From UHGV virus genome UHGV-1343268: a stretch of 17,098 bases of DNA; one strand, 5' to 3'. The notes below the pieces were generated by a model. That model saw only the letters and a program-made list of their open reading frames with translations. It was not told the DNA's origin and made no database searches. This DNA comes from a virus. The position numbers and the translations under genes were made by a program. This document shows positions 1,324-17,098 of this stretch, one piece after another; positions within the stretch are counted from its first letter, which is position 1; each line of letters opens with the position of its first letter.

Positions 1324-1584
1324 TTAATTCTGAGGTAAAGGCAAACTCATCTGATTGTTTCCCCTGTGTGAAGCTGGCAGCTCATGCCACGGGATACCTT
1401 CCGAAGAGTGAACGCCGGAGGCGTGTTTTGATGTGAATTTATGGAAAGCTTCCAGTGTTGAGAAGCATACGCCGCATTCCAGGTTGTTACACTGGTAATA
1501 CTTTTGCCGCACAGTGTTTGAATCGTTTTCCGGACGACTGGTGCGGATTCGGGCAGATGCGCCACAAAGCGGACAACGGAACAT
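1324..1584 (-). CDS. ogr: Ogr/Delta-family zinc-finger late-gene transcriptional activator
   Basis: N-terminus MFRCPLCGASARIRTSR...YYQCNNLECGVCF has the C-x2-C...C-x4-C arrangement and MF-CPLC start recalled for P2 Ogr. Strong SD (AAGGGAGG) 5 nt upstream of the ATG at 1584. Lies downstream of D as in P2. At 86 aa it is longer than P2 Ogr (72 aa). Confidence 0.8.
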   Translation of the reverse strand: MFRCPLCGASARIRTSRPENDSNTVRQKYYQCNNLECGVCFSTLEAFHKFTSKHASGVHSSEGIPWHELPASHRGNNQMSLPLPQN

Positions 1585-1873: not shown

Positions 1874-3013
1874 TCAGCTGCAAATTTCGTTGTTGCTGCA
1901 TGTTATCTCTTCAAGTGCAGCGGCGTTATAATCAACGGAATGATCAACCTGTGATGTAGGTATGCCAAAAAATTCAACCCCTGACATAATCATGTTGCCG
2001 ATATTCTCTCGCTGTTTATCACTGAGCCTGTCCCACCACTCAGGGGATGAATATGTATTTTCGGCCTTTGTGAAGAAAAAATACAGAAGGGTATTGAACA
2101 TCCTGTTAGCTGGGATCTTAATTAGTGTCCGTATAAAACGTCTGATAATTGTTGAAGTTCTCAGCCAACTGAACACTACATATCCCTTACCTCCGCAGGA
2201 AAAAGCATTGAAACATACTTGTTCCGCCGACACTGTAAGATCGCTCAAATCCTGAATTTTGGTCCCATCGAAATCCCTCTCCGGTGAAAGAATTGACGAA
2301 ACTACAATTGGTAAAGGCTCTGCAAAAGTGAAGATAACACTTTCAATTTCTGAAAATTGCCTGCTAAGTAGGATGCGGTCGAGGCTAGTTTTAAGATTAT
2401 TTAATTCAATTATTGCTGCATTTAAGCCACTTTGGTGCTGGTCGATTAATTTCTGAATATAATACTGTTCAACTTGTAGCTTTCCTTTATCGGCATTTTT
2501 AGCAAAATCAGAAGATAGCACTCCCCCTTCTTTGGCATAAATTTCTTTAGACAATGAACGAAACATTAAGGCAAAGCACTGCTCGTCCGTGCCTGTAAAT
2601 TTTTCGTTCTCTAGGCATGAAAATAAGATTCTGTCATGAACTGCACAAAATCCTGTAAAAGTGGATGCCTGATTGATACCGATCTTCTCGGGAAGCCATT
2701 TTCCGTTGTTTCTCATCAGGCTTGCTAAGTTCATTATCACCCCCATGACGTGATTGCTGGAGTCGGCGATCGCCTTAAGGCTACTGCTCTTAGATATCGT
2801 ATGCGCCTGAACGATGCGTTTATCACAATCTTCGTGCATGGATGCTGGCGCATAACATGCCTTTCTCTGCGAGAGAGACTTTGAAAATTTCAGTGCCTCG
2901 GCTTTGGATACCGGAGTTTCACGATCTCGACCAAGATGGCACTTTTTATACTTAAGTCCTGAATTACACCAGCACTTATCATTTCTTCCTAATTTCACTT
3001 TATTGTTTCCCAC
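1874..3013 (-). CDS. Cargo protein with N-terminal SEC-C-type zinc-binding motif, function unknown (about 379 aa); candidate accessory or defence gene
   Basis: ORF on the same strand as D and ogr and inserted between them. N-terminus KCWCNSGLKYKKCH matches the SEC-C metal-binding motif (C-x-C-x8-C-H). Markedly AT-rich compared with the flanking phage genes. The annotated start is a GTG with no clear SD; an in-frame GTG five codons downstream (MKLGRND...) is an alternative. The remainder of the protein has no domain I can name. Confidence 0.7.
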   Translation of the reverse strand: MGNNKVKLGRNDKCWCNSGLKYKKCHLGRDRETPVSKAEALKFSKSLSQRKACYAPASMHEDCDKRIVQAHTISKSSSLKAIADSSNHVMGVIMNLASLMRNNGKWLPEKIGINQASTFTGFCAVHDRILFSCLENEKFTGTDEQCFALMFRSLSKEIYAKEGGVLSSDFAKNADKGKLQVEQYYIQKLIDQHQSGLNAAIIELNNLKTSLDRILLSRQFSEIESVIFTFAEPLPIVVSSILSPERDFDGTKIQDLSDLTVSAEQVCFNAFSCGGKGYVVFSWLRTSTIIRRFIRTLIKIPANRMFNTLLYFFFTKAENTYSSPEWWDRLSDKQRENIGNMIMSGVEFFGIPTSQVDHSVDYNAAALEEITCSNNEICS

Positions 3014-3412
3014 GAAATTAATGTTCTATAACAAAAACACTTATCGAAAATAGGTGTAATTTATCACTCCGGCAGCTAAAAGATCATCTGCCACATGCAC
3101 GATAATAAATCTTCCTTGCGTCATCATCTCCCTCTGTTCTTAAATCAGGTGTTGCCTGTGTGCGGAGGATTCGCGAAGTACAGTAGCCGAAATGCATGAT
3201 CTTACCCATCAATGGTGAGCACGCGATAATAAGTGAGTCCCTAATTGACCACTCATGGCAATACAACTTCAACCAGCATTCATGACCACTATCCGTGGAT
3301 TAACTGTTACATAAGCAACACCTGCTCTAGGCACAAAGCGGGCTGCCAGATTGGGTCTGGCACTGTGCTGTGAGTGTGTCAGTTCTGGTTTGAGTCAATA
3401 CATCTAATTTGC

Positions 3413-4513
3413 TCATTCTGTTTCTGCTATCCATTCCGGGATTTTTGCTTCAAGCTCAAGCTGTGTGGTAAAGCCGCTGTTATCAATGGTGTGCTCGGCT
3501 TTTGCAATAATCCAGTCCTGATTATCGATGTCACTTTTGAAGCCTGTCACCGTGCCATGCATTTCGGGATAGAGTTCTGCGCGTCCACGCGCCAGCGTGA
3601 TGGAGAATGATGCGGCTCCGCGTTGTAGCTGCTGCCACTTTGCCGCCGCTGCACGTCTTGCTGCCTGCTCGTTCTGATAAGTCTTGCGTAACACAAACAC
3701 GTTGCCTTCCGCACCTTCCATATAGTCACCTTCACGGCTGCTGCTTTTCTCCTTTTTCGGTTTGCGGCGTTTCACGCTGACTTTTTTCTTTTTCCCGTAA
3801 TTAAGATCAAGCCAGTAAGCACGTACCCCCGTATACGCTTCGCGGTCAGCAATGCGGAACTGATGGCGATCGCCACTGCTGCGCGTGATGGCGAACGATG
3901 GCAACGGCTGGCCCTGTGCGTTCACGCCACCGCCTGGCATGATGAATAACAGATTACTGCTTTTTACCGTAGTGATTGCGCCCAGCATTTCCGCCATGCG
4001 CGTAAGGAAGGACATGTCGCTTTCTTCGGTCTGGTCGGCGTGGTCGATTTCAATATCCATCAGCATTTCGCTGATTTGTGGTTTCAGACCGTACCGATGA
4101 GCGATGGCGGATACCACGCGCTCAACGGTCACATCATGCCAGGACACCTCACGTTTAACGTTAAATTCATCCCGAAAATCTGCGCTTCTGGCTGAAACAG
4201 TCAGCCTGTCCGGCGGTCCTTCGTGAGCGATTTCATCAACAATGTAAGTGCCTTTTTCTGTCAGCGGTTCTCCTTTCCAGCCAATGAGAACCGTCAGGCG
4301 CGCGCCCCGTGGCGGTAGCTGCAACTGACCATCCGCATCATCCAGCGTGATGGTGAGCAGGTCCGCTTCAAATCCCCGGTTGTCGGTCAGTGACAGGCTC
4401 ATCAGGCGCTCTGCCACGCCGGACAGTGTTTCCCCCTCCGCGAGAATATCAAAATCCGGCATTTTCACGGGGTCTGTGCTCTGACTGAGCAATTGCATGG
4501 TGGTATCGGTCAT
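3413..4513 (-). CDS. D: P2 gpD-like tail protein (late control D family)
   Basis: Supplied ORF 3413..4645; the likely start is the internal ATG at 4513 (MTDTTMQLLSQ...) preceded by GGGAGGGA. Length (about 366 aa) and sequence character are consistent with the gpD family; position next to ogr matches P2 synteny. Confidence 0.88.
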   Translation of the reverse strand: MTDTTMQLLSQSTDPVKMPDFDILAEGETLSGVAERLMSLSLTDNRGFEADLLTITLDDADGQLQLPPRGARLTVLIGWKGEPLTEKGTYIVDEIAHEGPPDRLTVSARSADFRDEFNVKREVSWHDVTVERVVSAIAHRYGLKPQISEMLMDIEIDHADQTEESDMSFLTRMAEMLGAITTVKSSNLLFIMPGGGVNAQGQPLPSFAITRSSGDRHQFRIADREAYTGVRAYWLDLNYGKKKKVSVKRRKPKKEKSSSREGDYMEGAEGNVFVLRKTYQNEQAARRAAAAKWQQLQRGAASFSITLARGRAELYPEMHGTVTGFKSDIDNQDWIIAKAEHTIDNSGFTTQLELEAKIPEWIAETE

Positions 4514-4670
4514 CTGTTCCCTCCCTGTGCGGCATGGTCGCATGTGCGTGCATAGGGGGTTACTGCTTTTTGTTGTCGCCGTGGCGGGAGAACGGCGCAG
4601 GGGAGAGATTACGCGCGTGGTGGGTGATGATTGTTGCCGAATCATTTAACGGATACAAGGGGCTGAAGCT

Positions 4671-5855
4671 ATGAGTGAAACTCGTTTTCATGGTGCCCGT
4701 GTTACGGAAAGTACCGACCTGGTAACAGCGATTAATGATGTTGATTCCAGTGTTATCGGTATCGTGGCAACGGCGGATGATGCGGACGCGGAGCTGTTCC
4801 CGCTGAACAAGCCCACACTGCTGACCCGCGTCAATGACGTGCTGGGAAAATGCGGGACTACGGGGACGCTTTATCGTGCGCTTAAGGCTATTGCAGACCA
4901 GGTGAGCACAAAAGTGATCGTCGTTCGCGTGGCTGAACACAAAGAAGAAGGCGGTAAGACGCAGGATCAACTGGTTATCGGTGGTTCTGAATCTGACGGC
5001 AGCTATACGGGGATGTATGCGCTGCTTGTTGCAGAGCAGGATGAAAGCATCGGATACCGTCCGCGTATTCTGGCCGCGCCGGAGCTGGACACGGAGGCGG
5101 TGACAAAATCCCTGTGCGTGATTGCGGGTAAACTGCGCGCGTTTGTGTATGCCTCATGTCATGACTGTAACACGATGGCTGAGGCAATTACCTACCGCCA
5201 GAAATTCAACGAACGTGAGGTGATGCTCTTATGGCCGGACTTCATCGCCTACAACCCGAAAAGTGGCAAAAACGAAACGTTCCCCGCGCCTGCCTATGCG
5301 TGCGGCCTTCGTGCGTACATTGACCATGAGCAGGGCTGGCACAAATCGCTGTCCAACGTTCCTGTTAAAAATGTGCTGGGGATGTCCAGGCATGTTTTCT
5401 GGTCGTTGCAGGCCGAAGACAGTGATGCCAACAGCCTCAACAACAAAGAAATCACGACCATTATTCGTCGCAACGGGTTCCGCTTCTGGGGCAACCGCAC
5501 ACCGGAAACGAACGCCTACATCTTTGAGGTGTATACCCGAACCGCACAGGTGCTGGCTGATTCAATTGCGGAAGCGCAGTTTGAAACCATCGACAGTCCA
5601 CTGACGCCTGCGAACGTGAAGGATGTTATCAGTGCCATCAGGGCAAAACTGGATTCGCTGGTTACTGCCGGGAAACTGATTGGCGCGGAGTGCTGGTATG
5701 ACGTGGTGGATAACAGCACCACGGATTTACGTCAGGGGCGTGTGCGTATTCGCTACAAATATACGCCCGTTCCGCCACTGGAAGACATGGAGCTTTACCA
5801 GACGTTTACTGATGAATACTTTGAACCCGCATTTGCGGTGCTGGGAGGTGCCTGA
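4671..5855 (+). CDS. FI: Contractile tail sheath protein (P2 gpFI-like)
   Basis: 394 aa. Shares recalled gpFI motifs: DADAE-FPLNKP near the N-terminus, LRAF, WPDF, EQGWHK-LSNV, RRNGFRFWGNRT, YTRTAQV, YKYTPVPPLE. SD AAGGGG 8 nt upstream of the ATG. Confidence 0.93.
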   Translation: MSETRFHGARVTESTDLVTAINDVDSSVIGIVATADDADAELFPLNKPTLLTRVNDVLGKCGTTGTLYRALKAIADQVSTKVIVVRVAEHKEEGGKTQDQLVIGGSESDGSYTGMYALLVAEQDESIGYRPRILAAPELDTEAVTKSLCVIAGKLRAFVYASCHDCNTMAEAITYRQKFNEREVMLLWPDFIAYNPKSGKNETFPAPAYACGLRAYIDHEQGWHKSLSNVPVKNVLGMSRHVFWSLQAEDSDANSLNNKEITTIIRRNGFRFWGNRTPETNAYIFEVYTRTAQVLADSIAEAQFETIDSPLTPANVKDVISAIRAKLDSLVTAGKLIGAECWYDVVDNSTTDLRQGRVRIRYKYTPVPPLEDMELYQTFTDEYFEPAFAVLGGA

Positions 5856-6367
5856 TGGCTGTACCAAAACATCTTCGCTTTTTTACGCTGTTTGTGGATG
5901 GTGAAAACGAAGTGGGTAAGGTGACGTCCGTCACTCTGCCTAAGCTGACGCGCAAAACCGACAGCTACCGGGGTGGTGGCATGATGGGTGCGGTAAGTAT
6001 TGATCTCGGTCTGGACGACTCCGCGCTTGATGCGAGCTTTGTCATGGGGGGCGCAGTTCGTGAGCTGTTCCTTAAGTATGGCGGCACGATTGACGGCACG
6101 CTGCTGCGTTTTGCGGGTGAATATTACACCGATGCAGAAAGCGACCTGTATGAAGTCGAAATGCGCGGACGTGTGACGGAAATTGATATGGGGGAAGCCA
6201 AACAGGGCGAAGCCACATCACACACTTACGCCATTAAAAACACCTACTACAAGCTGAGTGTTAACGATCGCCCGTTGTGGGAGATTGACCTGCTGAACTT
6301 CATTTACCGGAAGGACGGCAAGGACATTGTGCCCGATCGCATCCGTTCCGCGCTCGGGCTTGGCTGA
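5855..6367 (+). CDS. FII: Tail tube protein (P2 gpFII-like)
   Basis: 170 aa. Start overlaps the FI stop (TGATG) with GGGAGGTG as SD. Has the LPKLTRK...YRGGGM motif recalled for gpFII. Sits immediately after the sheath gene as in P2. Confidence 0.9.
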   Translation: MAVPKHLRFFTLFVDGENEVGKVTSVTLPKLTRKTDSYRGGGMMGAVSIDLGLDDSALDASFVMGGAVRELFLKYGGTIDGTLLRFAGEYYTDAESDLYEVEMRGRVTEIDMGEAKQGEATSHTYAIKNTYYKLSVNDRPLWEIDLLNFIYRKDGKDIVPDRIRSALGLG

Positions 6368-6421
6368 TAAGTAATATGCAGGCGGCGCAGTGCGTCGCCT
6401 CTGACTGAAAGGAGTTTCCTG

Positions 6422-6787
6422 ATGAAAGAGACGAAAAACATCGATACCGAAAACACGGTAGTTGCTGACACTGTGAAAGAAACCAGTGAGCGTGGTGTAA
6501 AACTTACCCAACCAATTGAGCGAGGCGGCGAAAAAATCACGTATGTGGAGATCACCGGGGCTATTGAGCAGGCTGGATCTCTGCGAGATTTGTCGCTGTC
6601 TGATGTGCTGAATCTGAAAGCGGAATCCATGTTTACGCTGCTGTCACGCGTGACATCACCGCGACTGGATGAAGTGACGATCAAAAAAATGGCATCCCGT
6701 GACTTTATTCAGTTATGTGTGGTTGCCGTAAATTTTTTGAGCGGTGCGGACTCTGGCGGGAAGAACGAACAGGCGACGGAAGCCTGA
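6422..6787 (+). CDS. E: Tail assembly chaperone (P2 gpE-like), zero-frame product
   Basis: 121-aa ORF with SD AAAGGAG, placed between the tube and tape-measure genes. Contains the slippery site TTTTTTG at 6733-6739. Confidence 0.85.
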   Translation: MKETKNIDTENTVVADTVKETSERGVKLTQPIERGGEKITYVEITGAIEQAGSLRDLSLSDVLNLKAESMFTLLSRVTSPRLDEVTIKKMASRDFIQLCVVAVNFLSGADSGGKNEQATEA

Positions 6788-6951
6788 TCACGGTTGTGTG
6801 CTTTGAGCACATAGAAGACTTTGTGGCAGATATTGCCGTTATTTTTAACTGGTCGCCCGCCGAAATCTTCATGATGACGCCCGGCGAAGTGGTTAGCTGG
6901 CGTGAGCGGGCGGCACTTCGCAGCGGGAATGCAGACAATGAAGACTCTTGA
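6422..6951 (+). CDS. E': gpE+E' fusion chaperone made by programmed -1 ribosomal frameshift
   Basis: The overlapping ORF 6715..6951 is in the -1 frame relative to E (start coordinates 6422 and 6715 differ by one in frame) and has no plausible start of its own. The heptamer T6G at 6733-6739 sits in the overlap. This matches the conserved E/E' frameshift of P2 and the analogous lambda G/GT. The E' ORF ends where T begins. Confidence 0.75.
6733..6739 (+). promoter_or_regulatory. Slippery heptamer TTTTTTG for the -1 programmed frameshift E to E'
   Basis: Seen in sequence, in the E/E' overlap with the correct frame relationship. Confidence 0.7.
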
Positions 6952-9745
6952 TATCCGGGTCGCTTTCAGCGCCGTTGACAGGCTGACCCGGCCTGCCGAA
7001 AACGCCCGCCGCCTGATGGGGCAGTTTGGTGACTCCATCCAGCGAACGCAGGGGGCGATTAAAAATCTCGAGCGTCAGGCTCGTTCATTTGAGCGCGCCC
7101 GCGACGCTGTCAGTAAAGCGGATGCGGGTATCGTGAAAGCACGACGCCAGCTTAACGCCCTTAATCAGTTACAACGCACGGGTACAGTGCTCAGCGAAAA
7201 ACAACAAAAGCTGATGCAGCAGTTAAGCACCCGGCTTGAACGCCTGAATGAATCGCGCACACGGGAAATTCAGAAAATGCGGGAGCTTGGCGGAGAGCTG
7301 AAACGCCACGGCATTTCCCTGACAGGCAGCGATAACACCATCCAGCAGGCCATCAGACGCACCGAACAGTACAACAACCAGCTTGAACGCGAACGGCAGG
7401 CGCTTGCGCGTGTAACGCGGGCGCGTGAGTGGTATTCGCGCGCGCAGGAAACCGCGGGAAAACTGAAAACAGGTGGTGCGCTGGCAATTGGTGCGGCAGC
7501 GGCGGGCGGCTATGCTGCCGGGCGTTTTTTGCAGCCCGCGATCGGGTTCGGCAAAGAGATGTCCCGCGTTCAGGCGCTGACGCGAATCGACCAGAACAGC
7601 CCGCAGTTTAAGGCGCTGCGTGAGCAGGCGTTAAAACTTGGCTCTGAAACGCAGTTCACCGCAGGCGATGCCGCCAGTGGGCAGGCATTTCTTGCAATGG
7701 CAGGCTTCACACCGCAGGCCATTCAGGCTGCGCTTCCCGGAGTGCTGAGCATGGCAACGGCTGGCGGTATGGATCTCGGCGAGACGGCAGATATTGGCTC
7801 AAATATCCTGACGCAGTTCGGCCTTTCTGCTGACCAGATGGACCGGGTCGGTGACACACTCACCGCAGCGTTTACCCGTACCAACACTGACCTTCGCGCA
7901 CTGGGCGAAACCATGAAATATGCAGGTCCGGTGGCGGGTAAGCTGGGAATATCGCTGGAGCAGGCCGCAGCGATGGCTGGTGTGCTGGCGAATATGGGCA
8001 TCAGAGGGAGTGATGCCGGGACGGCAATGCGTGCCAGCCTGGCTCGTCTGGCATCACCGCCAAAGGCGGCGGCAGAAGCTCTGAAAGAGCTGGGCGTGTC
8101 CGTCTCGGATGCCGGGGGTAAAATGCGCCCGATGGAGGATGTGCTGGCCGACCTTTATAAAGCCACCCGCAAATACGGGGAAGTTGACCGGGTATCGTTC
8201 TTTAAGGACATTGCCGGAGAAGAGGCTTTCACATCGTTTATGGCGCTCGTTGATGCAGTGGGTGACGGTTCCTTACCCAAACTGAGAAAAGAACTTGAAG
8301 GCGCGCGCGGTGAGGCTGAACGCACAGCAAAGGTTATGGCCAACAACCTTGACGGCGATCTGAAATCACTCGGCAGTGCATGGGAAGGGTTGCGCATCCG
8401 CATTGCAGATCTGATTGACGGTCCGCTGCGTTCTGTCACGCAGTGGCTCACGCGGGTGGTATCAAGGGTGACGGCGCTGGCGCAGGCCCATCCGGCACTG
8501 ACGCGCCAGCTACTGATAGCAGGCGGTGCGTTGCTGGCAATGACTGCAACGGTTGGCTCGTTGTCGCTGGCTATTGGTGTGCTTGCTGGTCCGCTGGCAA
8601 AACTGCGTCTTGGTTTTTCTCTCCTGACCGGATCAATGAATGCTGTCAGGGTCCTGCCAGCACTATGGGGAATGGTGACGGGTTCCGTTTCTTTACTGGG
8701 AGGCGCTATCGGGGCGCTGTTCAGTCCGGTTGGTCTTATCGTGGCTGCGCTTGCCGGAGCTGCCGTCCTTATCTGGAAATACTGGGATCCCATCAGGGCA
8801 TTTTTTGCCGGGGTGTTCAGCGGGATTATGGAAAGGCTGAACCCGTTGCGTGAAACCTTTGAACGGTTTGGCCCTGTTTTTGACGCAATCGGAAGCGGGA
8901 TCAGCCAGGTGTTTAACTGGTTTAAATCGCTGCTGTCACCGATGGAGTCCAGCAAGGAAACGCTGGATAAATGTACCAGTGCTGGCGAGATATTCGGTAA
9001 CGTTCTTGGCGGTGCGTTACAACTTGTTCTGACACCTGCAAAAATGCTACTGGATACGCTGGCGTGGATACTTGAAAAACTTGGCGTCCTTCCGGATGAA
9101 GCGGAAAGGGCGCGCAAGAAAATCGAAGACGCACAGCGTGCGGCCATTCTTCAGGATAAGGTTGCCTTACTTCAGGGGGACCTGGCGAAAATCAATCCGC
9201 CGAAGCCTGTGGAAAATGGCAATGGCACCGGAGGTGATAAACCCAAAGACAACAAACCGCTCACAGACAGCAATACCGGGACGCTACGCAGACTCAGCAA
9301 AATTGCTGATAACACAGGTAAGCTGGTTGATGAGACGAAAAAACGCATTGGCCCTGGCGATATTGTCTTTAAGAACCTGCCCCGCGCACTTGCTGTTCGT
9401 GGGGAGTGGCAGGAGCGGAAGATTGCGCAGGTCAGTAAGCCTGCCCCCGCAATTAATATCACACCCGTAGTCCCGGCTCCGCTGCCTCCGGCGCTGGTCC
9501 CTGTTGTTGCGGCCAGCTCCCGCCCGGTGGCGGAGGCCATACGATCGCCAGTGGCATCAGTTCCTGCAGCTTCCCGTAATCGGGAGCCTGCTGTCTCCAG
9601 ATTTGGCGGTGAAATTCATGTTCATCTGCATAACGTTGTTACGCAGAATCCCCGCGAACTGGCGAAACTGGTCGGTGAAATGGTCAGGGCAGAAATGGAA
9701 CGGCGCGCCCGTGCCGGGCGTGGCAGTTTTTACGATAAAGATTGA
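6938..9745 (+). CDS. T: Tail tape measure protein (P2 gpT-like)
   Basis: Very long ORF (supplied as 6902..9745, 947 aa). Coiled-coil-rich N-terminal half, hydrophobic Gly/Ala-rich segments in the middle, located directly after E/E'. Start is uncertain among GTG 6902, ATG 6929 and ATG 6938; 6938 is chosen because GGGA lies about 9 nt upstream. Confidence 0.9.
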   Translation: MKTLDIRVAFSAVDRLTRPAENARRLMGQFGDSIQRTQGAIKNLERQARSFERARDAVSKADAGIVKARRQLNALNQLQRTGTVLSEKQQKLMQQLSTRLERLNESRTREIQKMRELGGELKRHGISLTGSDNTIQQAIRRTEQYNNQLERERQALARVTRAREWYSRAQETAGKLKTGGALAIGAAAAGGYAAGRFLQPAIGFGKEMSRVQALTRIDQNSPQFKALREQALKLGSETQFTAGDAASGQAFLAMAGFTPQAIQAALPGVLSMATAGGMDLGETADIGSNILTQFGLSADQMDRVGDTLTAAFTRTNTDLRALGETMKYAGPVAGKLGISLEQAAAMAGVLANMGIRGSDAGTAMRASLARLASPPKAAAEALKELGVSVSDAGGKMRPMEDVLADLYKATRKYGEVDRVSFFKDIAGEEAFTSFMALVDAVGDGSLPKLRKELEGARGEAERTAKVMANNLDGDLKSLGSAWEGLRIRIADLIDGPLRSVTQWLTRVVSRVTALAQAHPALTRQLLIAGGALLAMTATVGSLSLAIGVLAGPLAKLRLGFSLLTGSMNAVRVLPALWGMVTGSVSLLGGAIGALFSPVGLIVAALAGAAVLIWKYWDPIRAFFAGVFSGIMERLNPLRETFERFGPVFDAIGSGISQVFNWFKSLLSPMESSKETLDKCTSAGEIFGNVLGGALQLVLTPAKMLLDTLAWILEKLGVLPDEAERARKKIEDAQRAAILQDKVALLQGDLAKINPPKPVENGNGTGGDKPKDNKPLTDSNTGTLRRLSKIADNTGKLVDETKKRIGPGDIVFKNLPRALAVRGEWQERKIAQVSKPAPAINITPVVPAPLPPALVPVVAASSRPVAEAIRSPVASVPAASRNREPAVSRFGGEIHVHLHNVVTQNPRELAKLVGEMVRAEMERRARAGRGSFYDKD

Positions 9746-9751
9746 GGAGTC

Positions 9752-10246
9752 ATGGCCATGATGATGATCTACGGCATGTTTGTTTTTGAGCTGCGCACGT
9801 TGCCGCATCAGCAGTTACAGCAAAATAAAAGCTGGCGGCATGTGAAAAATGAACGCGTTAACCGTTCAGCAAGCTGGCAGTATATCGGGGCAGGCGATGA
9901 TCGCATCGTTCTTTCTGGTGTGCTTTATCCTGAAATTACAGGTGGCGAAGTGTCGCTTTCGTTGCTGACCACGCAGGCATATACAGGACGCCCCTGGCCT
10001 CTGATTGATGGTGTCGGGCAGATTTACGGCATGTATGTACTGACTGAAACGAATACGACCCGCTCCGAGTTTGATCGCTACGGTAAGGCGAAAAAGATAG
10101 AATTTTCACTGACTCTTGAACGCTGTGATGAGGATTTGCGGGAGCGCCTGCAATCCTCATCGTTCAGCGATATGTTGTCCGGCTTCAAAGATAAGGTGAC
10201 ATCATCCCTTAATAGCGCGGCCAGCTCAGTTAAGGGGCTGCTCTGA
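9752..10246 (+). CDS. U: Tail protein U (P2 gpU-like)
   Basis: 164 aa, SD GAGGAG, immediately downstream of T. Size and position match P2 gpU. Confidence 0.82.
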   Translation: MAMMMIYGMFVFELRTLPHQQLQQNKSWRHVKNERVNRSASWQYIGAGDDRIVLSGVLYPEITGGEVSLSLLTTQAYTGRPWPLIDGVGQIYGMYVLTETNTTRSEFDRYGKAKKIEFSLTLERCDEDLRERLQSSSFSDMLSGFKDKVTSSLNSAASSVKGLL

Positions 10247-10322
10247 TTTAACGTATGTCGCCAATTTCCTGATGAAGGTGACTGGCGACTTGCTGTTGTA
10301 TGTCCTTCTCAGAAAATTGTTT

Positions 10323-10351
10323 TTGAATAACAAACAACAGGATTTTATAAT
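10323..10351 (+). promoter_or_regulatory. Near-consensus sigma70 promoter for the acetyltransferase cargo gene
   Basis: TTGAAT (10323-10328), 17-nt spacer, TATAAT (10346-10351), in an AT-rich intergenic region about 50 nt upstream of the cargo gene SD. Confidence 0.6.
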
Positions 10352-10402
10352 CTCTTAACCTTATAACATGTGTGGTCTGAAATAATAATTAAGGAGATTA
10401 TC

Positions 10403-10975
10403 GTGCTGTCTTACCTAATGGCAATTCACTTTGTTTTATTTGGGAACTCTACTAATTTAAAAAACTTCTGGAAACATGAAGTAATTCGGCGGAAACGTAT
10501 GGATATCTGGAGGCTTTTAAGAGAGAAAAAGCAGCGTAACAGGAATTTCCTTTTCTGGTGGCGGTTGGCTAACGAAATGTATATTAATGGTAATAAATTA
10601 CATAAGAAAGCAGCCAAGAAGTTAAACAGTAAAATAATTAACAAATTTGGTTGCGAAATTGGATTGGGCGCAAATATTGGAAAAGGGTTAACAATTCCCC
10701 ATCATGCTGGAATTGTTGTTCATTTTGCTGTTGATGCTGGTGAAAATCTGGTGTTACGACAGAATACGACCATTGGACAGATAGATGGTGACATACCTGG
10801 TTCAAGAGTAAAAATTGGTAGCAACGTTGATATCGGAGCTAATTGTTGCATCATTGGATTATCCCGTAAAATTGGGGATAATGTAAAAATAGGTGCAATG
10901 TCTTTTATAAATAAAGATATACCATCGAACTGCACATATATAACTAAAAAGAGCGGTGCTGTATTGTATAAATAG
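10403..10975 (+). CDS. Hexapeptide-repeat acyltransferase, serine-O-acetyltransferase (CysE/WcaB)-like; cargo gene
   Basis: The C-terminal half carries repeated [LIV]-G-x-x-x-x hexapeptide units (IGLGANIGKGLTI, KIGSNVDIGANCCIIG, KIGDNVKIGAMSFI) resembling the left-handed beta-helix of CysE-type acetyltransferases. Strongly AT-rich. SD AAGGAG (10391-10396) precedes an in-frame GTG at 10403; the ATG at 10418 is an alternative start. The supplied ORF begins at GTG 10370. Confidence 0.78.
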   Translation: MLSYLMAIHFVLFGNSTNLKNFWKHEVIRRKRMDIWRLLREKKQRNRNFLFWWRLANEMYINGNKLHKKAAKKLNSKIINKFGCEIGLGANIGKGLTIPHHAGIVVHFAVDAGENLVLRQNTTIGQIDGDIPGSRVKIGSNVDIGANCCIIGLSRKIGDNVKIGAMSFINKDIPSNCTYITKKSGAVLYK

Positions 10976-10984
10976 AGTACATAA

Positions 10985-11020
10985 AGCCATCGATATTTCT
11001 ATCGATGGCTTTTTCTTTTT
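10985..11020. terminator. Strong intrinsic terminator between the convergent acetyltransferase and tfa genes
   Basis: Perfect 11-bp stem AGCCATCGATA (10985-10995) / TATCGATGGCT (11000-11010), loop TTTC, then TTTTCTTTTT. The T-run overlaps the tfa stop codon. Confidence 0.75.
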
Positions 11021-11597
11021 ATTGTGGGGCGACTGGCCACTCAATATCTGCTGCTACTGTTGTATCAACACGATGCAACAATACTCGATATGTCTTCCAT
11101 GCAGCCAGTAACGATGTCTCTTCCTCCGTCGCAATATCTAAATCTATAGCATCCTGAAGTGGTGCAATATGCTCACTGGCTACCTGCATCAGGCTGTTTT
11201 TTGTTTCTTCCGCCTCCCTTATCCGAAATAGTTTTTCTGCTTCTGCATCTTTCACCCAGGATGTGCCGTTCCACTTCTGATACTCTCCATACGGCGACAA
11301 CCAGGTAACATTTTCCGGTAATGGACCGAGTTCAGAAATAAATAACGAGTCCCCTGATGCCACGTCATAAACCGTTTTACCCCGATGGTCTTCAACGAGA
11401 TGCCACGATGCCTCATCACTGTTGAAAACGGCCACGAAGCCAGCCGGAATATCTGGCGGGGCAATATCGGTACTGTTTGCAGGCAGACCTGTATGAGGTG
11501 GAATGTATGCATCACCTTCACCAATAAACTCATTGGTTCCGGTCAGTAGATTATAAATTTTTATGGTCCGTGAGTGTTCACTCATTCTGAATGTCAT
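11019..11597 (-). CDS. tfa: Tail fibre assembly chaperone (lambda Tfa / P2 gpG class)
   Basis: 192 aa. C-terminal [30 protein letters not shown] resembles the conserved Tfa C-terminus. The start ATG overlaps the tail-fibre stop (TAATG), indicating translational coupling. Confidence 0.85.
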
Positions 11598-13916
11598 TAT
11601 GCAAGCCTCACAATATAGTTAAATGCGATGTTTTTTACGGTGTTTTCTTTGTTACCCGTAGCGTTAACGGTGATGGTGTGTCCGTGGGGACCAATAATGA
11701 CAGAATGGGCATGAGCACCAATGCCGATAGTGTGGTTATGGGCACCGATATATACATTGTGAGCATGCCCGCCTGCGCTCGACGTGGTACCAGTACCTAA
11801 CGCAGCGTTATAACCGGCTGATACACCATTCCCCGCGCCAGTGTGACCAACAGGTATATTGTGTGAATGATTTCCAGCGCTATTCGTAGTTTTTGTGCCG
11901 TAATCAAATGAACTGGTCGTTTTAGTACCGTAATCAAACGACGATGTGGTTTTCGTCCCCAAATCCGTACTGGATGCGCTGGCGCTGTGGGTGTGCGATT
12001 TAATGCCGTCCTGTTCCTGAGACAATACGGCACGACCACTGCCGGGCTTGCCCTTAATCGTCCAGCCACGCATATCAGGAATAACGCCTGACGGATAAGC
12101 GACTGCAAGTTTCGGGTATGCAGATTTGTCAAAAGTCTGCCCCTGCATCAGGGCATAGCCAGACGGAACGGTATCTGATGGCCACGGGATTGGTGCACCG
12201 ACTGGATAAAACTCTGCAGGAGGATGAGCCGAGGTGTAAAGCTGCGCCCACGGCGACCAGTTTGCGTCGGTCGTATCCCGTCGTGAACGAATAAATGCCG
12301 GAGCATGAGCACCGCTTGTACCACTCCAGCCGATGAGTAACTCACCTTCGCCAACGGCTGTCATCCCTTTCAGGTGAATGATATTTCCATACGCTGTTGG
12401 ATATCCGTTGTTATACACCTCGTATAACTCAAGACCTGTTGCCCCCTGCGTATTGTCTGTCAGCGCGGTTACCCGACCTTTTGAAGACAGATTAACTGAT
12501 GATACTGCTGTTCCACCTGACGGTAATGCCCCGATCTCTGATGCCGTTGGCTTATTTCTGGAGTTATAGTCCCTTCGCCAGCCAGGTGAATAATCTGNNN
12601 NNNNNNNNNNNNNNNNNNNNNNNNNNNNNNNNNNNNNNNNNNNNNNNNNNNNNNNNNNNNAATGCGGATCGTCATCGCTGACTTTATCCCCATTACTTCA
12701 ATGACAGCTCCTGCGAGATGAATATTACCGCAGCCAGTATCAGTAATGATTTTATTATTGCCATAAGACCAGGAACCCTTGCACATCCAGTATGGATGGT
12801 TAAATGCTCCCTGAGAATCCAGCCACTCGATAAACTGTGCAGTCGTCCAGTCTCCTGTTGTTGTGCTTACTGACCCACCGAAGGCACGGCTGGCACCAAT
12901 ATTTTTCGTAAAGGTGTCTTTGCCAGGGATATCCGCACCGTTCTTATCTTTCTGCAGACGTTTCTCAGCATTGTCATTGGCTGCTTTTACTGCCTTTGGC
13001 GTTGCTGCCAGCGTTTCAGACGTGCTGTTGGTCGCGCTGCTTAGCTGGACTATCCCTTTCTGTGCTGTCGTTGCATCCTGTGCGGTGTATTTCCCGTCAG
13101 CCAGGTCATACGCGGCCTTAACTGCTTTTGGCGTTGCCGCCAGCGTTTCAGACGTGCTGTTGGTCGCGCTGCTTAGCTGGACTATCCCTTTCTGTGCTGT
13201 CGTTGCATCCTGTGCGGTGTATTTCCCGTCAGCCAGGTCATACGCGGCCTTAACTGCTTTTGGCGTTGCCGCCAGCGTTTCAGANNNNNNNNNNCAGCCA
13301 GGTCATACGCGGCCTTAACTGCTTTTGGCGTTGCCGCCAGCGTTTCAGAATCGCTGTTAGTGGCGCTACTGAGTTGAACAAAGCCTTTTGCGGTCAGCGA
13401 GGCATCCGGGTGACATCGTGACTGTTCATGCTCTTTCAGTTTGTTATCCACGTAATCCACTGTGGCCATCACCATGGTGTTATCCACGGTAAGCGCCACA
13501 GTGGCAGTGCTGGATACGGTCAGAATGGTGCGAAATGTTTGTGCACGTCCGGACCCTTCGGCAACGGCTGGCTTGTAACTTTCGGCAGTATTGCCCACCG
13601 CGATTAAATCGCCGTGCTCATCAAACACACCAATTTCCCGGATCCAGAATCCGCCCGTTTCTGGAGGAATAACCAGCTCCGCAATAATGCGGTTCTGATG
13701 TGTTGCGTCCAGGATGACGCGATTAACAGTGTGTCGCCACACCTCATGCACCAGACGGGTCTGCTTACTGTCTGGTGTGGGCAACGCGCCGCCACCGTCG
13801 CCCACGGCCATATGAGTCAGGCGGACAGGCTTACCATCTGGCGCGGCTGCCTGAGCTAATTTTTTGGCACCTGTATCGGTGATAACGGTTTTAAATTTTC
13901 GTGTTGTGGTACTCAT
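11597..13916 (-). CDS. H: Mosaic tail fibre protein (P2 gpH-like N-terminus, lambda Stf-like C-terminus); interrupted by two N-runs
   Basis: N-terminal ORF (13916 downward) [24 protein letters not shown]...HEVWRH...[15 protein letters not shown]...[13 protein letters not shown]...[20 protein letters not shown] matches the gpH N-terminal baseplate-attachment region as I recall it. C-terminal segment ...[34 protein letters not shown]...HxH repeats...[11 protein letters not shown] matches the lambda Stf-type tip. By manual translation the frame is continuous from the 12598-12660 gap to the stop at 11597. True length and frame across the gaps cannot be determined. Confidence 0.82.
12598..12660. 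other. Run of 63 ambiguous bases (N), assembly gap or masked segment inside the tail fibre gene
   Basis: Seen in sequence. Confidence 0.95.
12981..13400. repeat. Tandem 132-bp direct repeats (44-aa coding units) inside the tail fibre gene
   Basis: Units 13021-13152 and 13153-13284 appear identical on reading. Diverged partial copies flank them (about 12981-13020 and 13295-13400). The 10-N run at 13285-13294 replaces roughly 77 nt of a unit. On the coding strand the unit encodes ...[44 protein letters not shown]... Confidence 0.9.
13285..13294. other. Run of 10 ambiguous bases (N) inside the tandem-repeat array, probably a collapsed-repeat gap
   Basis: Seen in sequence; the flanking sequence shows repeat phase is not preserved across the N-run. 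Confidence 0.95.
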
Positions 13917-13918
13917 GC

Positions 13919-14449
13919 TTAATCGTCCGGATAAATGGTAATAACTTCACCGTCATGAGTTGCCGCCGCTGCAAAAATATCCCCCGGAATTTCCTGAATG
14001 ATATTCAGCCCTGTCATGTGGCGGCTGACCGGACGGGCATCAGCAATCAACCGCTCCATTTCCAGATACATTTCCTCCGTCACGCCACTGTCCAGTGTGC
14101 CGACTTCAACGGTAAATGTTCCCGGTTCTCCGCCGAACTCCCACCACTCAGACACGCGAATGAGGTATCCCAGCGGCTCAATGGCCCTGCGCAGTGCGCT
14201 GATGGTCCCTTTGTGTCGGTGTGTCAGCCATGCATCACGAATCACCTGTCGTTTTGTCTCTTCCGGCCAGTTGCGATCCCAGCGGTCAACGGAAAATGCC
14301 CAGGCGAGATAAGGCAGCAGGTGCACCGGGCAGGTGTCCGGCGACCACAGCGTGTTGAGGTCTACCGGGATGTCTGTAATGCGCGTTCCGACAGCTTCGG
14401 CACAACGCATGAAACTGCTGGCTGATGGTGGTAACAGTGAATTACTCAT
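13919..14449 (-). CDS. I: Baseplate protein (P2 gpI-like)
   Basis: Supplied ORF 13919..14482; the likely start is the internal ATG at 14449 (MSNSLLPPSASSFMRC...), which overlaps the J stop (AATGAGTAA). Motifs LW-PDTCP and LPYLAWAFSVDRWD match recalled gpI. Sits between J and H as in P2. Confidence 0.88.
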   Translation of the reverse strand: MSNSLLPPSASSFMRCAEAVGTRITDIPVDLNTLWSPDTCPVHLLPYLAWAFSVDRWDRNWPEETKRQVIRDAWLTHRHKGTISALRRAIEPLGYLIRVSEWWEFGGEPGTFTVEVGTLDSGVTEEMYLEMERLIADARPVSRHMTGLNIIQEIPGDIFAAAATHDGEVITIYPDD

Positions 14450-15338
14450 TGCGCCCACCTTCGCTGATGGTGAACGACTCACAGCGCGCCGCCTGTATGT
14501 CGCTGATGGCCATATTCTGTGTGGGTTCGATTATCTCCACGCGTTGCACACCGTGCACATGCAGTGCGGCAGCAATGGCGGACAACGCCACGTCCTGACC
14601 GATAAGCCCCTGCTCAGCCAGCCACTTCCTGAACGACGATTCAGCCGCCGCCAGAATAGGTTCGGATTCCGGGCCGGGGTAAAAGTACAGTTTTGCATTC
14701 AGCCGCCATGTCACGATTCTGGCGCTCTGTACCGTCAGGCGGTCGGCCACCGGGCGGGTATCCTCTGCATTCAGAACGGCGCGAACGGTATTAAGCAACG
14801 CCTCCGTTGCTGTGCCGTCGCCTTCAGTGGACAGGATGGAAACCGTCACATTTGCCGGAGACGGACTGATAGCCCGCGCATCACGCACCAGACCGCTGGC
14901 GCTGCGGGCAAAATACTCGTATGCACCTGACGGGCCAGCAACACTCAGGCCATCGTACGCCCGCTGCGCCCGCAGTCTCAGCGATGTGTCGCTTTCCATC
15001 ACCGCGTCGGTGGTATCCGTTGCCGGAGTGATAACCAGGCGCTTTGTGTTCATATTGCCCGCGAGGTTGTCCAGGTCTGTCCCGGTGCTGTGGCTTAACA
15101 TGCAGGCGCGTGCACCCTCATTGACCCGCTGGCGTAACAGCATTTCACGAAACGCTGTTGTCTGGGCGATAACGTTCAGGGGTTCCGATTCCAGCTCCAG
15201 CGCGGCGGAGACGGCTTCACGCTGTTCGGCAGGATAGGACGCAATCATCATGGCCTTTGTGTCAGCCAGAATTGCCTCAAAATCAGGCTTCGCGATGATG
15301 GCGGGTTCCGGTAACTGGGAAAGGTCAACAGCAGGCAT
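14442..15338 (-). CDS. J: Baseplate assembly protein J (P2 gpJ-like)
   Basis: 298 aa, between W and I, size as expected for gpJ. Assignment rests mainly on synteny and size. Confidence 0.88.
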   Translation of the reverse strand: MPAVDLSQLPEPAIIAKPDFEAILADTKAMMIASYPAEQREAVSAALELESEPLNVIAQTTAFREMLLRQRVNEGARACMLSHSTGTDLDNLAGNMNTKRLVITPATDTTDAVMESDTSLRLRAQRAYDGLSVAGPSGAYEYFARSASGLVRDARAISPSPANVTVSILSTEGDGTATEALLNTVRAVLNAEDTRPVADRLTVQSARIVTWRLNAKLYFYPGPESEPILAAAESSFRKWLAEQGLIGQDVALSAIAAALHVHGVQRVEIIEPTQNMAISDIQAARCESFTISEGGRNE

Positions 15339-15341
15339 GAT

Positions 15342-15692
15342 TTACTCCCTCAGCGTGATGGTTAACTCAACATTCTGCATGGTCTGCATGACAGTGCCCG
15401 ACAGCGTCACCCCGGCGCGGCCTCCCGCTTTCCAGACAACGTCGATGGCATCCAGGGCAATGCGGGGTTCCCATCGTGTCAGCGCAATCACGGCAGCACT
15501 CATGCATTGCAGACGCGTGGTGTTATTCATGGGTTCGTCAATCAAATCAGGCACAAGGCTGCCATATTCCCGTCGCATAACCCGGCTGGCCAGCGGGGTG
15601 GTCAGGATGTCCCTGACTGACTGTTTCAGGTGCTCCGTATCGTTCAGGTTTCCCGTCCCGTCCGGATTCATTCCTGTGTAGCGGGTTGTCAC
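15342..15692 (-). CDS. W: Baseplate wedge protein W (P2 gpW / T4 gp25-like)
   Basis: 116 aa, size and position (V then W then J) as in P2. Start overlaps the V stop (ATGA). Confidence 0.85.
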   Translation of the reverse strand: MTTRYTGMNPDGTGNLNDTEHLKQSVRDILTTPLASRVMRREYGSLVPDLIDEPMNNTTRLQCMSAAVIALTRWEPRIALDAIDVVWKAGGRAGVTLSGTVMQTMQNVELTITLRE

Positions 15693-16270
15693 TGCGGGCC
15701 TCCTGTCGAATCGCTGCCACCTTTAACGCCACCGTGTTTATGCGTATGCACTGTGATACCGTTTGAGGTGAAATTGCCGCCGCTGTGCGTGATATTGCCG
15801 CTCATCTTTCCCCCTTTTGTGACGTCAAGCGTCGCCGTTCTCAGAAGGTTTGTGCATTCCACGACGGGCGTATCCAGTTTCACGCTGACGGATGCCTGCA
15901 GGCTGGCTGTTTTCATGCCGCTGGCGCTCAGTGCGCCAGCGTCTGCGTCGTAGCGGAACACCGCGCCGTCCGGTGCGGTGATCACGATTTCTTTCAGGCT
16001 TTTGCCGGGGGCCGGACTGGCATCACTCCACAGACTGCCAATTATCATGGCGGTTTCCGGGTTGCCGCCAATGCAGGCAATTACCACCTGTTCGCCTGGT
16101 GATGGCGGTAGCCACACATTGAAGGCTCCCGCGCGCGTGGTGTTCCAGCGCAGCCAGCCTGTTTCCAGTTCGCCGCTGCGAACGCGCACGCGCCAGGACT
16201 TCTCATCAACTTCAGAGATGATCCCGGTGCGGATGATGTTGCTCAGCAGTCGCATGAGTTCTGCGCTCAC
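15689..16270 (-). CDS. V: Baseplate spike / assembly protein V (P2 gpV-like)
   Basis: 193 aa with a Gly-rich C-terminus; lies upstream of W. Start overlaps the stop of the preceding gene. Confidence 0.85.
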   Translation of the reverse strand: MSAELMRLLSNIIRTGIISEVDEKSWRVRVRSGELETGWLRWNTTRAGAFNVWLPPSPGEQVVIACIGGNPETAMIIGSLWSDASPAPGKSLKEIVITAPDGAVFRYDADAGALSASGMKTASLQASVSVKLDTPVVECTNLLRTATLDVTKGGKMSGNITHSGGNFTSNGITVHTHKHGGVKGGSDSTGGPQ

Positions 16271-16911
16271 CGTACAGCCTCCGCAATCCGGCCCAGCACC
16301 GTGTTATAAATCAGGCGCTCATCTGCCTGGCTGATACCCAGCAGCTCACGTACCGGGTAATCGGTGAAAATGCCCGGCGCAACCTGATCGCGCTCACCGA
16401 ACTGATGAACGCGTGCAATACGTGCGGCCACGCCGCTGTAACCCACCGTCACACCGGAAGCATCTGCACGGGCTTTCAGGTAGCGGGCGGTGCGCAGTTT
16501 TACGAACATGGGGACGCGCCTGGTGCTGTCCTGGTTGATGCGCTGGGTGCGTATTTCCAGAAAACGGTCAATGTCATCCCGGTAAAACGTGCGGATATTG
16601 TTTTTATCCTCATCCCACCCGGTAATGGTTCGCCCGTATTTCCCCGTGTCGTGATGCCAGTTTTTCAGCGTGCGTGCTTCGTTATTCCAGATAAAGCGAA
16701 TGCGCTCCTGTATCCGGGTTACGCGGCGTCTGCGTGGTGTCCATTCGGTCCCGTCCGGCGCTTTTTGTGACCGGATACGTGCCTGCTGGGCGCGACGTAA
16801 ATCCTGTGCCAGCTTTCTGGCGATGTTATTGATGGCCTGCTGATTCAGGCTGTCGCGGATAGCCTCAAAGGTTTCATCCACGCGGGTGAATGCCTTATCC
16901 ATCGCTTTCAC
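16267..16911 (-). CDS. S: Virion morphogenesis / tail completion protein (gpS-like)
   Basis: 214-aa ORF immediately upstream of V on the same strand, the position of P2 S. Start is GTG at 16911 or ATG at 16902 (GGGG about 8 nt upstream). Assignment rests mainly on synteny; it is larger than P2 gpS (about 150 aa). Confidence 0.55.
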   Translation of the reverse strand: MKAMDKAFTRVDETFEAIRDSLNQQAINNIARKLAQDLRRAQQARIRSQKAPDGTEWTPRRRRVTRIQERIRFIWNNEARTLKNWHHDTGKYGRTITGWDEDKNNIRTFYRDDIDRFLEIRTQRINQDSTRRVPMFVKLRTARYLKARADASGVTVGYSGVAARIARVHQFGERDQVAPGIFTDYPVRELLGISQADERLIYNTVLGRIAEAVR

Positions 16912-17098
16912 CCCACGTCACATCCTGGAATACATGCGACCAGTCGCCTTCGGAAGAAGGCAGACGGGGTTTTGGCTCCGGCAGGTGTTCTGCCTGCGGT
17001 GTGCCCTGACTGTTGCGCGTGATGCGAACGCGTTCCCGCAGGGGGAGCGTAAACAGGAGATCGGCGCTGTCATCGTCATTGATAACGGCAGAAAATTT
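16895..17098 (-). CDS. 3' portion of an upstream late gene, possibly gpR-like tail completion protein (partial, continues beyond the window)
   Basis: Manual translation of the minus strand gives an open frame from the window edge to TAA at 16895-16897 (...LLFTLPLRERVRITRNSQGTPQAEHLPEPKPRLPSSEGDWSHVFQDVTWGESDG). It overlaps the S start. Identity is inferred from position only. Confidence 0.35.
   Translation of the reverse strand, partial: KFSAVINDDDSADLLFTLPLRERVRITRNSQGTPQAEHLPEPKPRLPSSEGDWSHVFQDVTWGESDG

Follow-up and report, generated by a model that had tools for sequence, protein, structure and literature searches.

In phage P2 (Peduovirus P2; reference record NC_001895), the genes from V through ogr are all co-directional, with FI-U-D-ogr running in the same sense as V-G and D standing last in the F operon. 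The four late promoters of P2 share a common TGT-N12-ACA element and depend on Ogr (PMC3931495). Among P2-related phages, published papers describe P88 as inducible by chemicals and able to lyse many E. coli strains, and report spontaneous activity for its relative Citrobacter phage PhiSM and plaque formation for SEN4/5; we found no discussion of gene order in them. Here we analyze a 17,098-nt stretch of the virus genome UHGV-1343268 (hereafter, the window), in which the block of tail genes from FI (sheath) to U is inverted relative to P2 and FI diverges from the late control gene D across a 157-bp intergenic region (4514-4670).

The sheath-to-U block is inverted in a P88-like tail module

The open reading frame (ORF) listing and Pfam matches confirm a strand split in the window, with FI-FII-E/E'-T-U on the plus strand and ogr, D and (R)-S-V-W-J-I-H-tfa on the minus strand (Table 1). 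The P2-like (Peduoviridae) contractile tail gene set is present (V, W, J, I, H, tfa (G), FI, FII, E/E', T, U, D, S/R and ogr), with protein identities to P2 of 32-61% (25% for S; the 32% of E is a weak tblastn similarity), and E' is reached, as judged from the sequence and the reading frames, through a -1 slippery heptamer (T TTT TTG, 6733-6739) that P2 E/E' also carries (TTTTTTG). The canonical P2 gene order, in contrast, is not followed, since FI-U lies on the strand opposite to both V-tfa and D-ogr, and D heads a divergent unit of its own. A first, sequence-only reading of this stretch had described the block as inverted relative to P2 and D as cut off from the FI operon and in need of its own promoter, and both statements were borne out.

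The closest described phage is P88 (Xuanwuvirus P88, NC_026014), which presents an identical order and identical strands from ogr/D through FI-U to tfa-H-I-J-W-V-S-R. P88 matches 67% of the 17-kb window at 97% identity, and the unmatched third corresponds to cargo and fibre; the genus level of the International Committee on Taxonomy of Viruses (ICTV) is roughly 70% identity or more over the full length. The D-FI intergenic sequence of P88 and its motifs are as in the window. The two differ at the U/tfa junction, where the acetyltransferase gene of the window is replaced in P88 by a DNA invertase and an alternative fibre/tfa cassette, and in the YecA-like gene that separates D from ogr in the window, which P88 lacks. 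Prophages of E. coli O26:H11 11368, O111 and O103 are 99% identical to the window over the matched parts, and the O26 prophage carries both cargo genes, as the window does, with RefSeq assigning identical strands. The D of the window is 98-99% identical to those of P88 and O26 and 49% identical to that of P2; its ORF could extend to 4645, and a start at 4513 is favored by the RefSeq annotation and by the aligned start codons of relatives. The window is derived from a P88-like (Xuanwuvirus-type, Peduoviridae) prophage, of which it covers the tail end, the rest of the prophage lying outside it.

A faulty assembly, with an artefactual orientation of the block, would find some ground in the assembly or masking gaps that the window does hold, two runs of N at 12598-12660 (63 bases) and 13285-13294 (10 bases). 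Both runs, however, are confined to the repeat-rich fibre gene H, away from the two block junctions, which are gap-free. Whole-window comparison with complete E. coli genomes, using a coverage threshold of at least 80%, identified 172 genomes matching at ~99% identity. A 501-nt probe of the D-FI junction (5' end of D, gap and 5' end of FI) was found contiguous in a quarter of all complete E. coli genomes (1359 of 5426), some of which carry up to three copies, and the U-acetyltransferase-tfa junction was contiguous in 496. The same order is furthermore repeated in independently sequenced phages and in 59 loci from ~30 genera, described below. These results leave the artefact a negligible probability and exclude mis-assembly of the block orientation. 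Of the three origins proposed by the sequence-only reading, the lineage-specific arrangement and the ancestral inversion are upheld and the mis-assembly is not.

The N runs also account for the appearance of H itself, which is split into three apparent ORFs with the frame shifting across them: H looks broken because the runs lie inside the fibre gene. They adjoin a 132-nt tandem repeat at 12989-13284 (2.2 copies, 98% identical), and the O26 copy of H is intact (2133 nt), with window positions 12594-13295 finding no alignment to O26. We considered the broken H as a sign of a decaying prophage and rejected this interpretation, given that the frame breaks coincide with the N runs and the tandem repeat.

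The inverted layout is fixed in a large clade of P2-related phages

To place this layout among known phages, we compared whole-genome records and found it in five ICTV genera of the family, represented by P88 (Xuanwuvirus), Salmonella phages SEN4/SEN5 (Senquatrovirus), Enterobacter phage phiT5282H (Novemvirus) and Klebsiella phages 3LV2017 (Reginaelenavirus) and ST16-OXA48phi5.4 (Reipivirus). The records of SEN4, phiT5282H, 3LV2017 and ST16-OXA48phi5.4 run V-W-J-I-H-tfa rightward, U-T-E-FII-FI leftward and D(-ogr) rightward. The phages of these four genera share the inverted FI-U block and the divergent D with the window even though their D is only 62-78% identical to it and their fibre, cargo and early regions differ. 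Because five ICTV genera of the family have the inverted order, gene order is no criterion of Peduoviridae.

We then mapped 13 window proteins by tblastn on 80 loci centred on D homologues, taken from one-genome-per-species contigs. Every locus with a D at least 60% identical to that of the window (59 loci) has the inverted block, and every locus at or below 53% (21 loci) is co-directional. Hosts of the inverted loci include Escherichia, Salmonella, Citrobacter, Enterobacter, Klebsiella, Kosakonia, Serratia, Pectobacterium, Brenneria, Erwinia, Pantoea, Edwardsiella, Hafnia, Yersinia, Providencia, Morganella, Xenorhabdus and Photorhabdus, among others. The co-directional order is that of P2, Fels-2 (Felsduovirus), a Pseudomonas Citexvirus, a Burkholderia Tigrvirus and an Aeromonas peduovirus; in Fels-2 and in the Citexvirus, Tigrvirus and Piscesmortuivirus relatives examined, the tail module is homologous and of P2 type, but co-directional. 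The synteny comparison suggested by the sequence-only reading thus holds for P2 and Fels-2, two of the three phages that it named, which do differ from the window, and turns the other way for the five genera with the same layout. The terms "non-canonical" and "unusual" that it had applied do not suit this lineage: it had remarked that the arrangement would be ordinary if reference P2-like genomes showed it as the norm, and P88, SEN4/5, phiT5282H, 3LV2017, ST16-OXA48phi5.4 and the 59 loci do so.

Neighbour-joining trees inferred from D, from FI+FII+U and from all four proteins each group the inverted loci in one clade, with no co-directional locus nested inside it. As the inverted set is monophyletic, the simplest reading is a single ancient inversion, and the co-directional order of Fels-2, the Citexvirus, the Tigrvirus and the Aeromonas peduovirus indicates that the P2 order is ancestral. 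The FI-FII-E/E'-T-U block would thus have inverted once, in the common ancestor of a large enterobacterial P2-related clade comprising at least Xuanwuvirus, Senquatrovirus, Novemvirus, Reginaelenavirus and Reipivirus, and have then become fixed. Recurrent rearrangement, with the inverted order arising several times independently, might be expected of junctions that are cargo hot spots of variable content; the monophyly in three trees, together with a D-FI gap that keeps its size and its arrangement of motifs throughout the clade, makes it very improbable. Taken together, these data establish the sheath-to-U inversion as the normal, anciently fixed layout of the P88-type clade, already known and ordinary. 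Prophage annotation should not mark it as anomalous or mis-assembled. It provides a reliable synapomorphy by which the P88/SEN4-type clade can be told apart from the co-directional peduoviruses examined, P2 and Fels-2 among them.

Two observations were made in the course of this survey. The Symbiopectobacterium purcellii MEX chromosome carries three related prophages of the inverted type. In addition, a 226-kb contig labelled "Vagococcus sp. WN89Y" (NZ_JBQPOM010000071.1), a Gram-positive genus, holds a prophage 98% identical to the E. coli prophage of the window, which is probably due to contamination or mislabelling of that assembly.

The FI-U block is not a switchable segment

A fixed inversion has to be distinguished from a programmed segment flipped by a site-specific invertase, like the G segment of Mu or the C segment of P1. 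The presence of a DNA invertase gene at the U/tfa junction of P88 and of another directly upstream of FI in Fels-2 would fit such a switch. The P88 invertase, however, serves the adjacent alternative fibre cassette, and the 59 related loci all show a single orientation. Likewise, the junction probe is contiguous in 1359 of the 1373 E. coli genomes that carry it, at least one of the others being a partial match. No invertase gene was identified among the window ORFs examined, and no gix/hix-like crossover site in the window; the search of both block junctions for inverted repeats or recombinase sites, which the sequence-only reading had suggested, found none that pair the two. A programmed switch is thereby rendered extremely improbable, and we conclude that the FI-U block is not a switchable segment.

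The positions of these invertases are nonetheless of note in their own right. In P88, the invertase and an inverted alternative fibre/tfa cassette lie exactly at the U/tfa junction (stretch 8251-10399), and the equivalent invertase of Fels-2, a co-directional phage, is situated just upstream of FI (stretch 4375-6395). One breakpoint of the ancient inversion therefore adjoins the invertase position; that an invertase mediated the inversion is pure speculation.

A conserved dyad-symmetric element in the D-FI intergenic region

We aligned 57 distinct D-FI intergenic sequences, phylogenetically related and hence not independent, anchoring them on their best dyad. The strongest conserved element is TGT-N12-ACA, whose distance from the FI start codon hardly varies, with an information content of 2.0/1.8/2.0 bits for TGT and 1.9/1.0/1.7 bits for ACA, while most positions are saturated (0.1-0.4 bits). 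All 57 relatives present at least four of the six dyad matches, and 34 present a perfect dyad. On the FI side the alignment reveals a consensus hexamer GAttAT with near-invariant A, A and T (1.9-2.0 bits), and on the D side a mirror hexamer, AATCAT on the D strand, with 1.6, 0.8 and 1.4 bits at hexamer positions 2, 5 and 6. On the FI side, 56 of 57 sequences have a NANNNT hexamer at a distance of exactly 34 nt from the dyad, and on the D side 51 of 57 do, compared with counts of 0-10 at any other spacing from 26 to 42 nt. The dyad and its flanking hexamers were also located in SEN4, phiT5282H and 3LV2017; the corresponding row for ST16-OXA48phi5.4 was left unused, as the automatic search misplaced the site in this phage, where FI is annotated with a longer N-terminus.

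In the window, the D/FI gap is the only occurrence of this hexamer-34-site-34-hexamer geometry. If transcription started 7 nt past each hexamer (~4638 and ~4527), the dyad centre at 4582.5 would lie 55.5 nt from both starts, placing a partial dyad near -55, as extrapolated from the -10 hexamers. The same geometry is found in the divergent P/O region of P2, which reads hexamer, 34 nt, TGT-N12-CCA, 34 nt, hexamer, with one annotated activator site for both promoters and mapped starts (3016 and 3127) that are each 55.5 nt from the site centre. In the SEN4 genome there are exactly two perfect instances of the geometry, P/O and D/FI, and P88 has the corresponding two. In the D/FI gap, the -10-like elements also stand at the distance from the activator site that is seen in P2, with no good -35, and a scan for sigma-70 consensus promoters returned no match in 4514-4670, its matches clustering in the low-GC cargo gene. 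The bare TGT-N12-ACA motif was rejected as evidence: the window contains two perfect copies (837-854 and 3022-3039), which is the chance level and neither of which is positioned as a promoter, and it is conservation and geometry that carry the weight.

A further conserved feature is an alternating CG block, with consensus CGCGCGCG, which reads TGCGTGCA in the window (4545-4552) and lies between the D-side hexamer and the site, a few nucleotides from the D-side -10 hexamer throughout the clade. The same block stands beside the hexamer of the P-gene (terminase) promoter in P2, P88, SEN4, phiT5282H, 3LV2017 and ST16-OXA48phi5.4. We did not see it on the O side, and on the FI side a CGCGCG run, present in the window and in P88, was the one exception to its absence.

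A candidate bidirectional late promoter shared by D and FI

These observations suggest how D may be transcribed after its separation from the F operon. The inversion would have moved the FI late promoter, with its dyad-symmetric Ogr site, beside the start of D, turning the 157-bp gap into a bidirectional Ogr-dependent late promoter in which a single predicted Ogr-binding site lies ~55.5 nt upstream of two divergent starts. The rightward start would serve FI-FII-E-T-U, and the leftward start would serve D, the downstream YecA-like gene and ogr. Since ogr follows D after ~40 nt in most relatives, late transcription of the D unit would still run on into ogr, as that of the F operon does in P2. 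D thus probably shares the Ogr-dependent activator site of FI, and we hold it highly probable that one ancient, fixed inversion and a D/FI gap acting most likely as a bidirectional Ogr-dependent late promoter jointly explain the locus. We also lean toward the more specific view that the inversion created a second bidirectional late promoter (PD/PF) built like PP/PO, with one site, two divergent RNA polymerases and a PP-like half on the D side. This D-side half, in which the CGCGCGCG block comes after a -10 hexamer, resembles the half of PP/PO that serves the P gene, which suggests a distinct, undescribed sub-class of leftward late promoters.

Several points weigh against the shared promoter. 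The site in the window matches the dyad at five of six positions (AGA for ACA), and we estimate that ~0.65 such matches would be expected by chance in 157 bp; because an imperfect match alone would not be significant, the support for this site rests on conservation, and on conservation among phylogenetically related sequences. The PO and PF sites of P2, which read CCA, are likewise 5/6 matches to TGT-N12-ACA. The D-side hexamer of the window (GACCAT) is weak, the leader of D would be only ~14 nt, and the CGCGCGCG block, to which the model gives no role, might be a regulatory element in its own right. Both the start sites and the Ogr dependence of D are predictions from sequence, and our literature search found no paper discussing the inversion or a D promoter in P88/SEN4-type phages that would lend independent confirmation.

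The same weak hexamer, the possibility that the CG block is a distinct element and the predicted nature of the Ogr dependence of D would also suit an alternative in which the inversion is fixed, the TGT-N12-ACA site serves FI only and D has its own, Ogr-independent promoter. This alternative does not account for a D-side hexamer at the mirror spacing in the large majority of relatives, nor for a geometry equal to that of the P/O region of P2, whose two promoters share a single annotated site. Moreover, the CG block accompanies the known Ogr-dependent P-gene promoter in P2 and five relatives, and the gap lacks a predicted sigma-70 consensus promoter. We consider an Ogr-independent D promoter unlikely and favor the shared, Ogr-dependent one. 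The latter is a modest, testable addition, and one that P2 biology would predict. The hexamer-34-TGT-N12-ACA-34-hexamer geometry offers a testable case of a dyad-symmetric activator site re-used in both directions after an operon rearrangement, and gives an exact position at which to search for the D promoter.

Cargo genes and flanking features

The coordinates of the features discussed, together with the basis of each assignment, are collected in Table 1.

Table 1. Genes and predicted regulatory features of the window, with the basis of each assignment.
Feature	Position	Strand	Basis
ogr/Delta-like zinc-finger late activator gene	1324-1584	-	RefSeq annotation of 100% identical O26 copy; tblastn match
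YecA/SEC-C-motif protein gene, cargo between D and ogr	1874-3013	-	Pfam SEC-C; annotated YecA family protein
D, gpD baseplate hub / late control	3413-4513	-	Pfam Phage_GPD
D-FI divergent intergenic region, proposed bidirectional late promoter	4514-4670		Sequence; ~150-160 nt in nearly all relatives
Proposed D promoter -10 hexamer GACCAT, read 4539 to 4534	4534-4539	-	Inferred start near 4527
Putative P2-type activator (Ogr) site TGTCGCCGTGGCGGGAGA	4574-4591		TGT-N12-AGA, 5/6 match to TGT-N12-ACA; centre 4582.5
Proposed FI promoter -10 hexamer GATGAT	4626-4631	+	Inferred start near 4638
FI, tail sheath	4671-5855	+	Pfam Phage_sheath_1, Gp18_domIII_N, sheath_1C
FII, tail tube	5855-6367	+	Pfam Phage_tube, E 7.5e-47
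E (6422-6787) and E' (-1 frame, to 6951), tail assembly chaperones	6422-6951	+	O26 annotation: tail protein and GpE family protein
T, tape measure	6938-9745	+	Pfam PhageMin_Tail; annotation
U, tail gene, final gene of the inverted block	9752-10246	+	Pfam Phage_P2_GpU, E 5.5e-39
Putative sigma-70-like promoter TTGAAT-17-TATAAT, before cargo gene	10323-10351	+	Consensus scan, 10/12 matches
Hexapeptide-repeat (serine/sugar O-) acetyltransferase, cargo	10403-10975	+	Pfam Hexapep; annotated serine O-acetyltransferase
Hairpin terminator, 13-bp stem, between cargo gene and tfa	10983-11012	+	Terminator scan; T-run on plus strand only
tfa / G, tail fibre assembly	11019-11597	-	Pfam Caudo_TAP, E 1.1e-40
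H, tail fibre	11597-13916	-	Pfam Phage_tail_fib, Phage_fiber_2, Collar
I, baseplate	13919-14482	-	Pfam Tail_P2_I
J, baseplate	14442-15338	-	Pfam Baseplate_J
W, baseplate	15342-15692	-	Pfam GPW_gp25
V, baseplate	15689-16270	-	Pfam Phage_base_V/spike/Apex
S, tail completion	16267-16911	-	Pfam Phage_tail_S
R, tail completion, partial at window end	16895-17098	-	Coordinates transferred from O26 annotation

The acetyltransferase gene between U and tfa forms a low-GC stretch (GC 0.385), and its product matches, besides Pfam Hexapep, EpsC/CysE/WcaB-like NCBIfam models, all under the curated cut-offs. The segment comprising this gene, tfa and the fibre tip (~10410-12210) is 94-96% identical in the P1-like Punavirus vB_EcoM-Ro157c2YLVW and in phage JL22, and the Punavirus shows the same convergent acetyltransferase/tfa arrangement; many Stx-converting phages, too, have matches to parts of the window. 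The convergence of the cargo gene and tfa, correctly described in the sequence-only reading, had been attributed there to the inversion. We rejected this origin: the same convergent cassette is present in the P1-like phage, with matches to other unrelated phages, and the convergence therefore belongs to a mobile fibre cassette and not to the block inversion. As to the terminator that the two genes were thought to share, a hairpin is indeed present, and its T-run on one strand only supports half of that proposal. In appearance, the acetyltransferase-tfa-fibre-tip segment is a cassette for host range or surface modification that moves horizontally. Next to nothing is found in other relatives at the U/tfa junction, which by analogy with the Z/fun position of P2 can be regarded as a variable cargo slot.

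On the other side of D, the YecA-like protein (379 aa, with an N-terminal SEC-C motif) is absent from P88 and from most relatives, where ogr lies ~40 nt after D, and its gene is probably lineage-specific cargo. Between this gene and the end of D lies an imperfect 37-nt inverted repeat (3125-3161 / 3309-3345; 73% complementary, arms 147 nt apart), which encloses a 62-aa ORF without a family match and may be the scar of a cargo insertion. The ogr product matches NCBIfam NF007241 with an E-value of 1.6e-11, under the curated cut-off, and a gene for a Hok/Gef family toxin (~990-1130) lies between ogr and the tRNA-side end of the window. In O26 11368, the window start falls just past a tRNA Gly-Cys-Leu cluster, which the prophage abuts (O26 stretch 3682-5133) and which is likely its attachment site.

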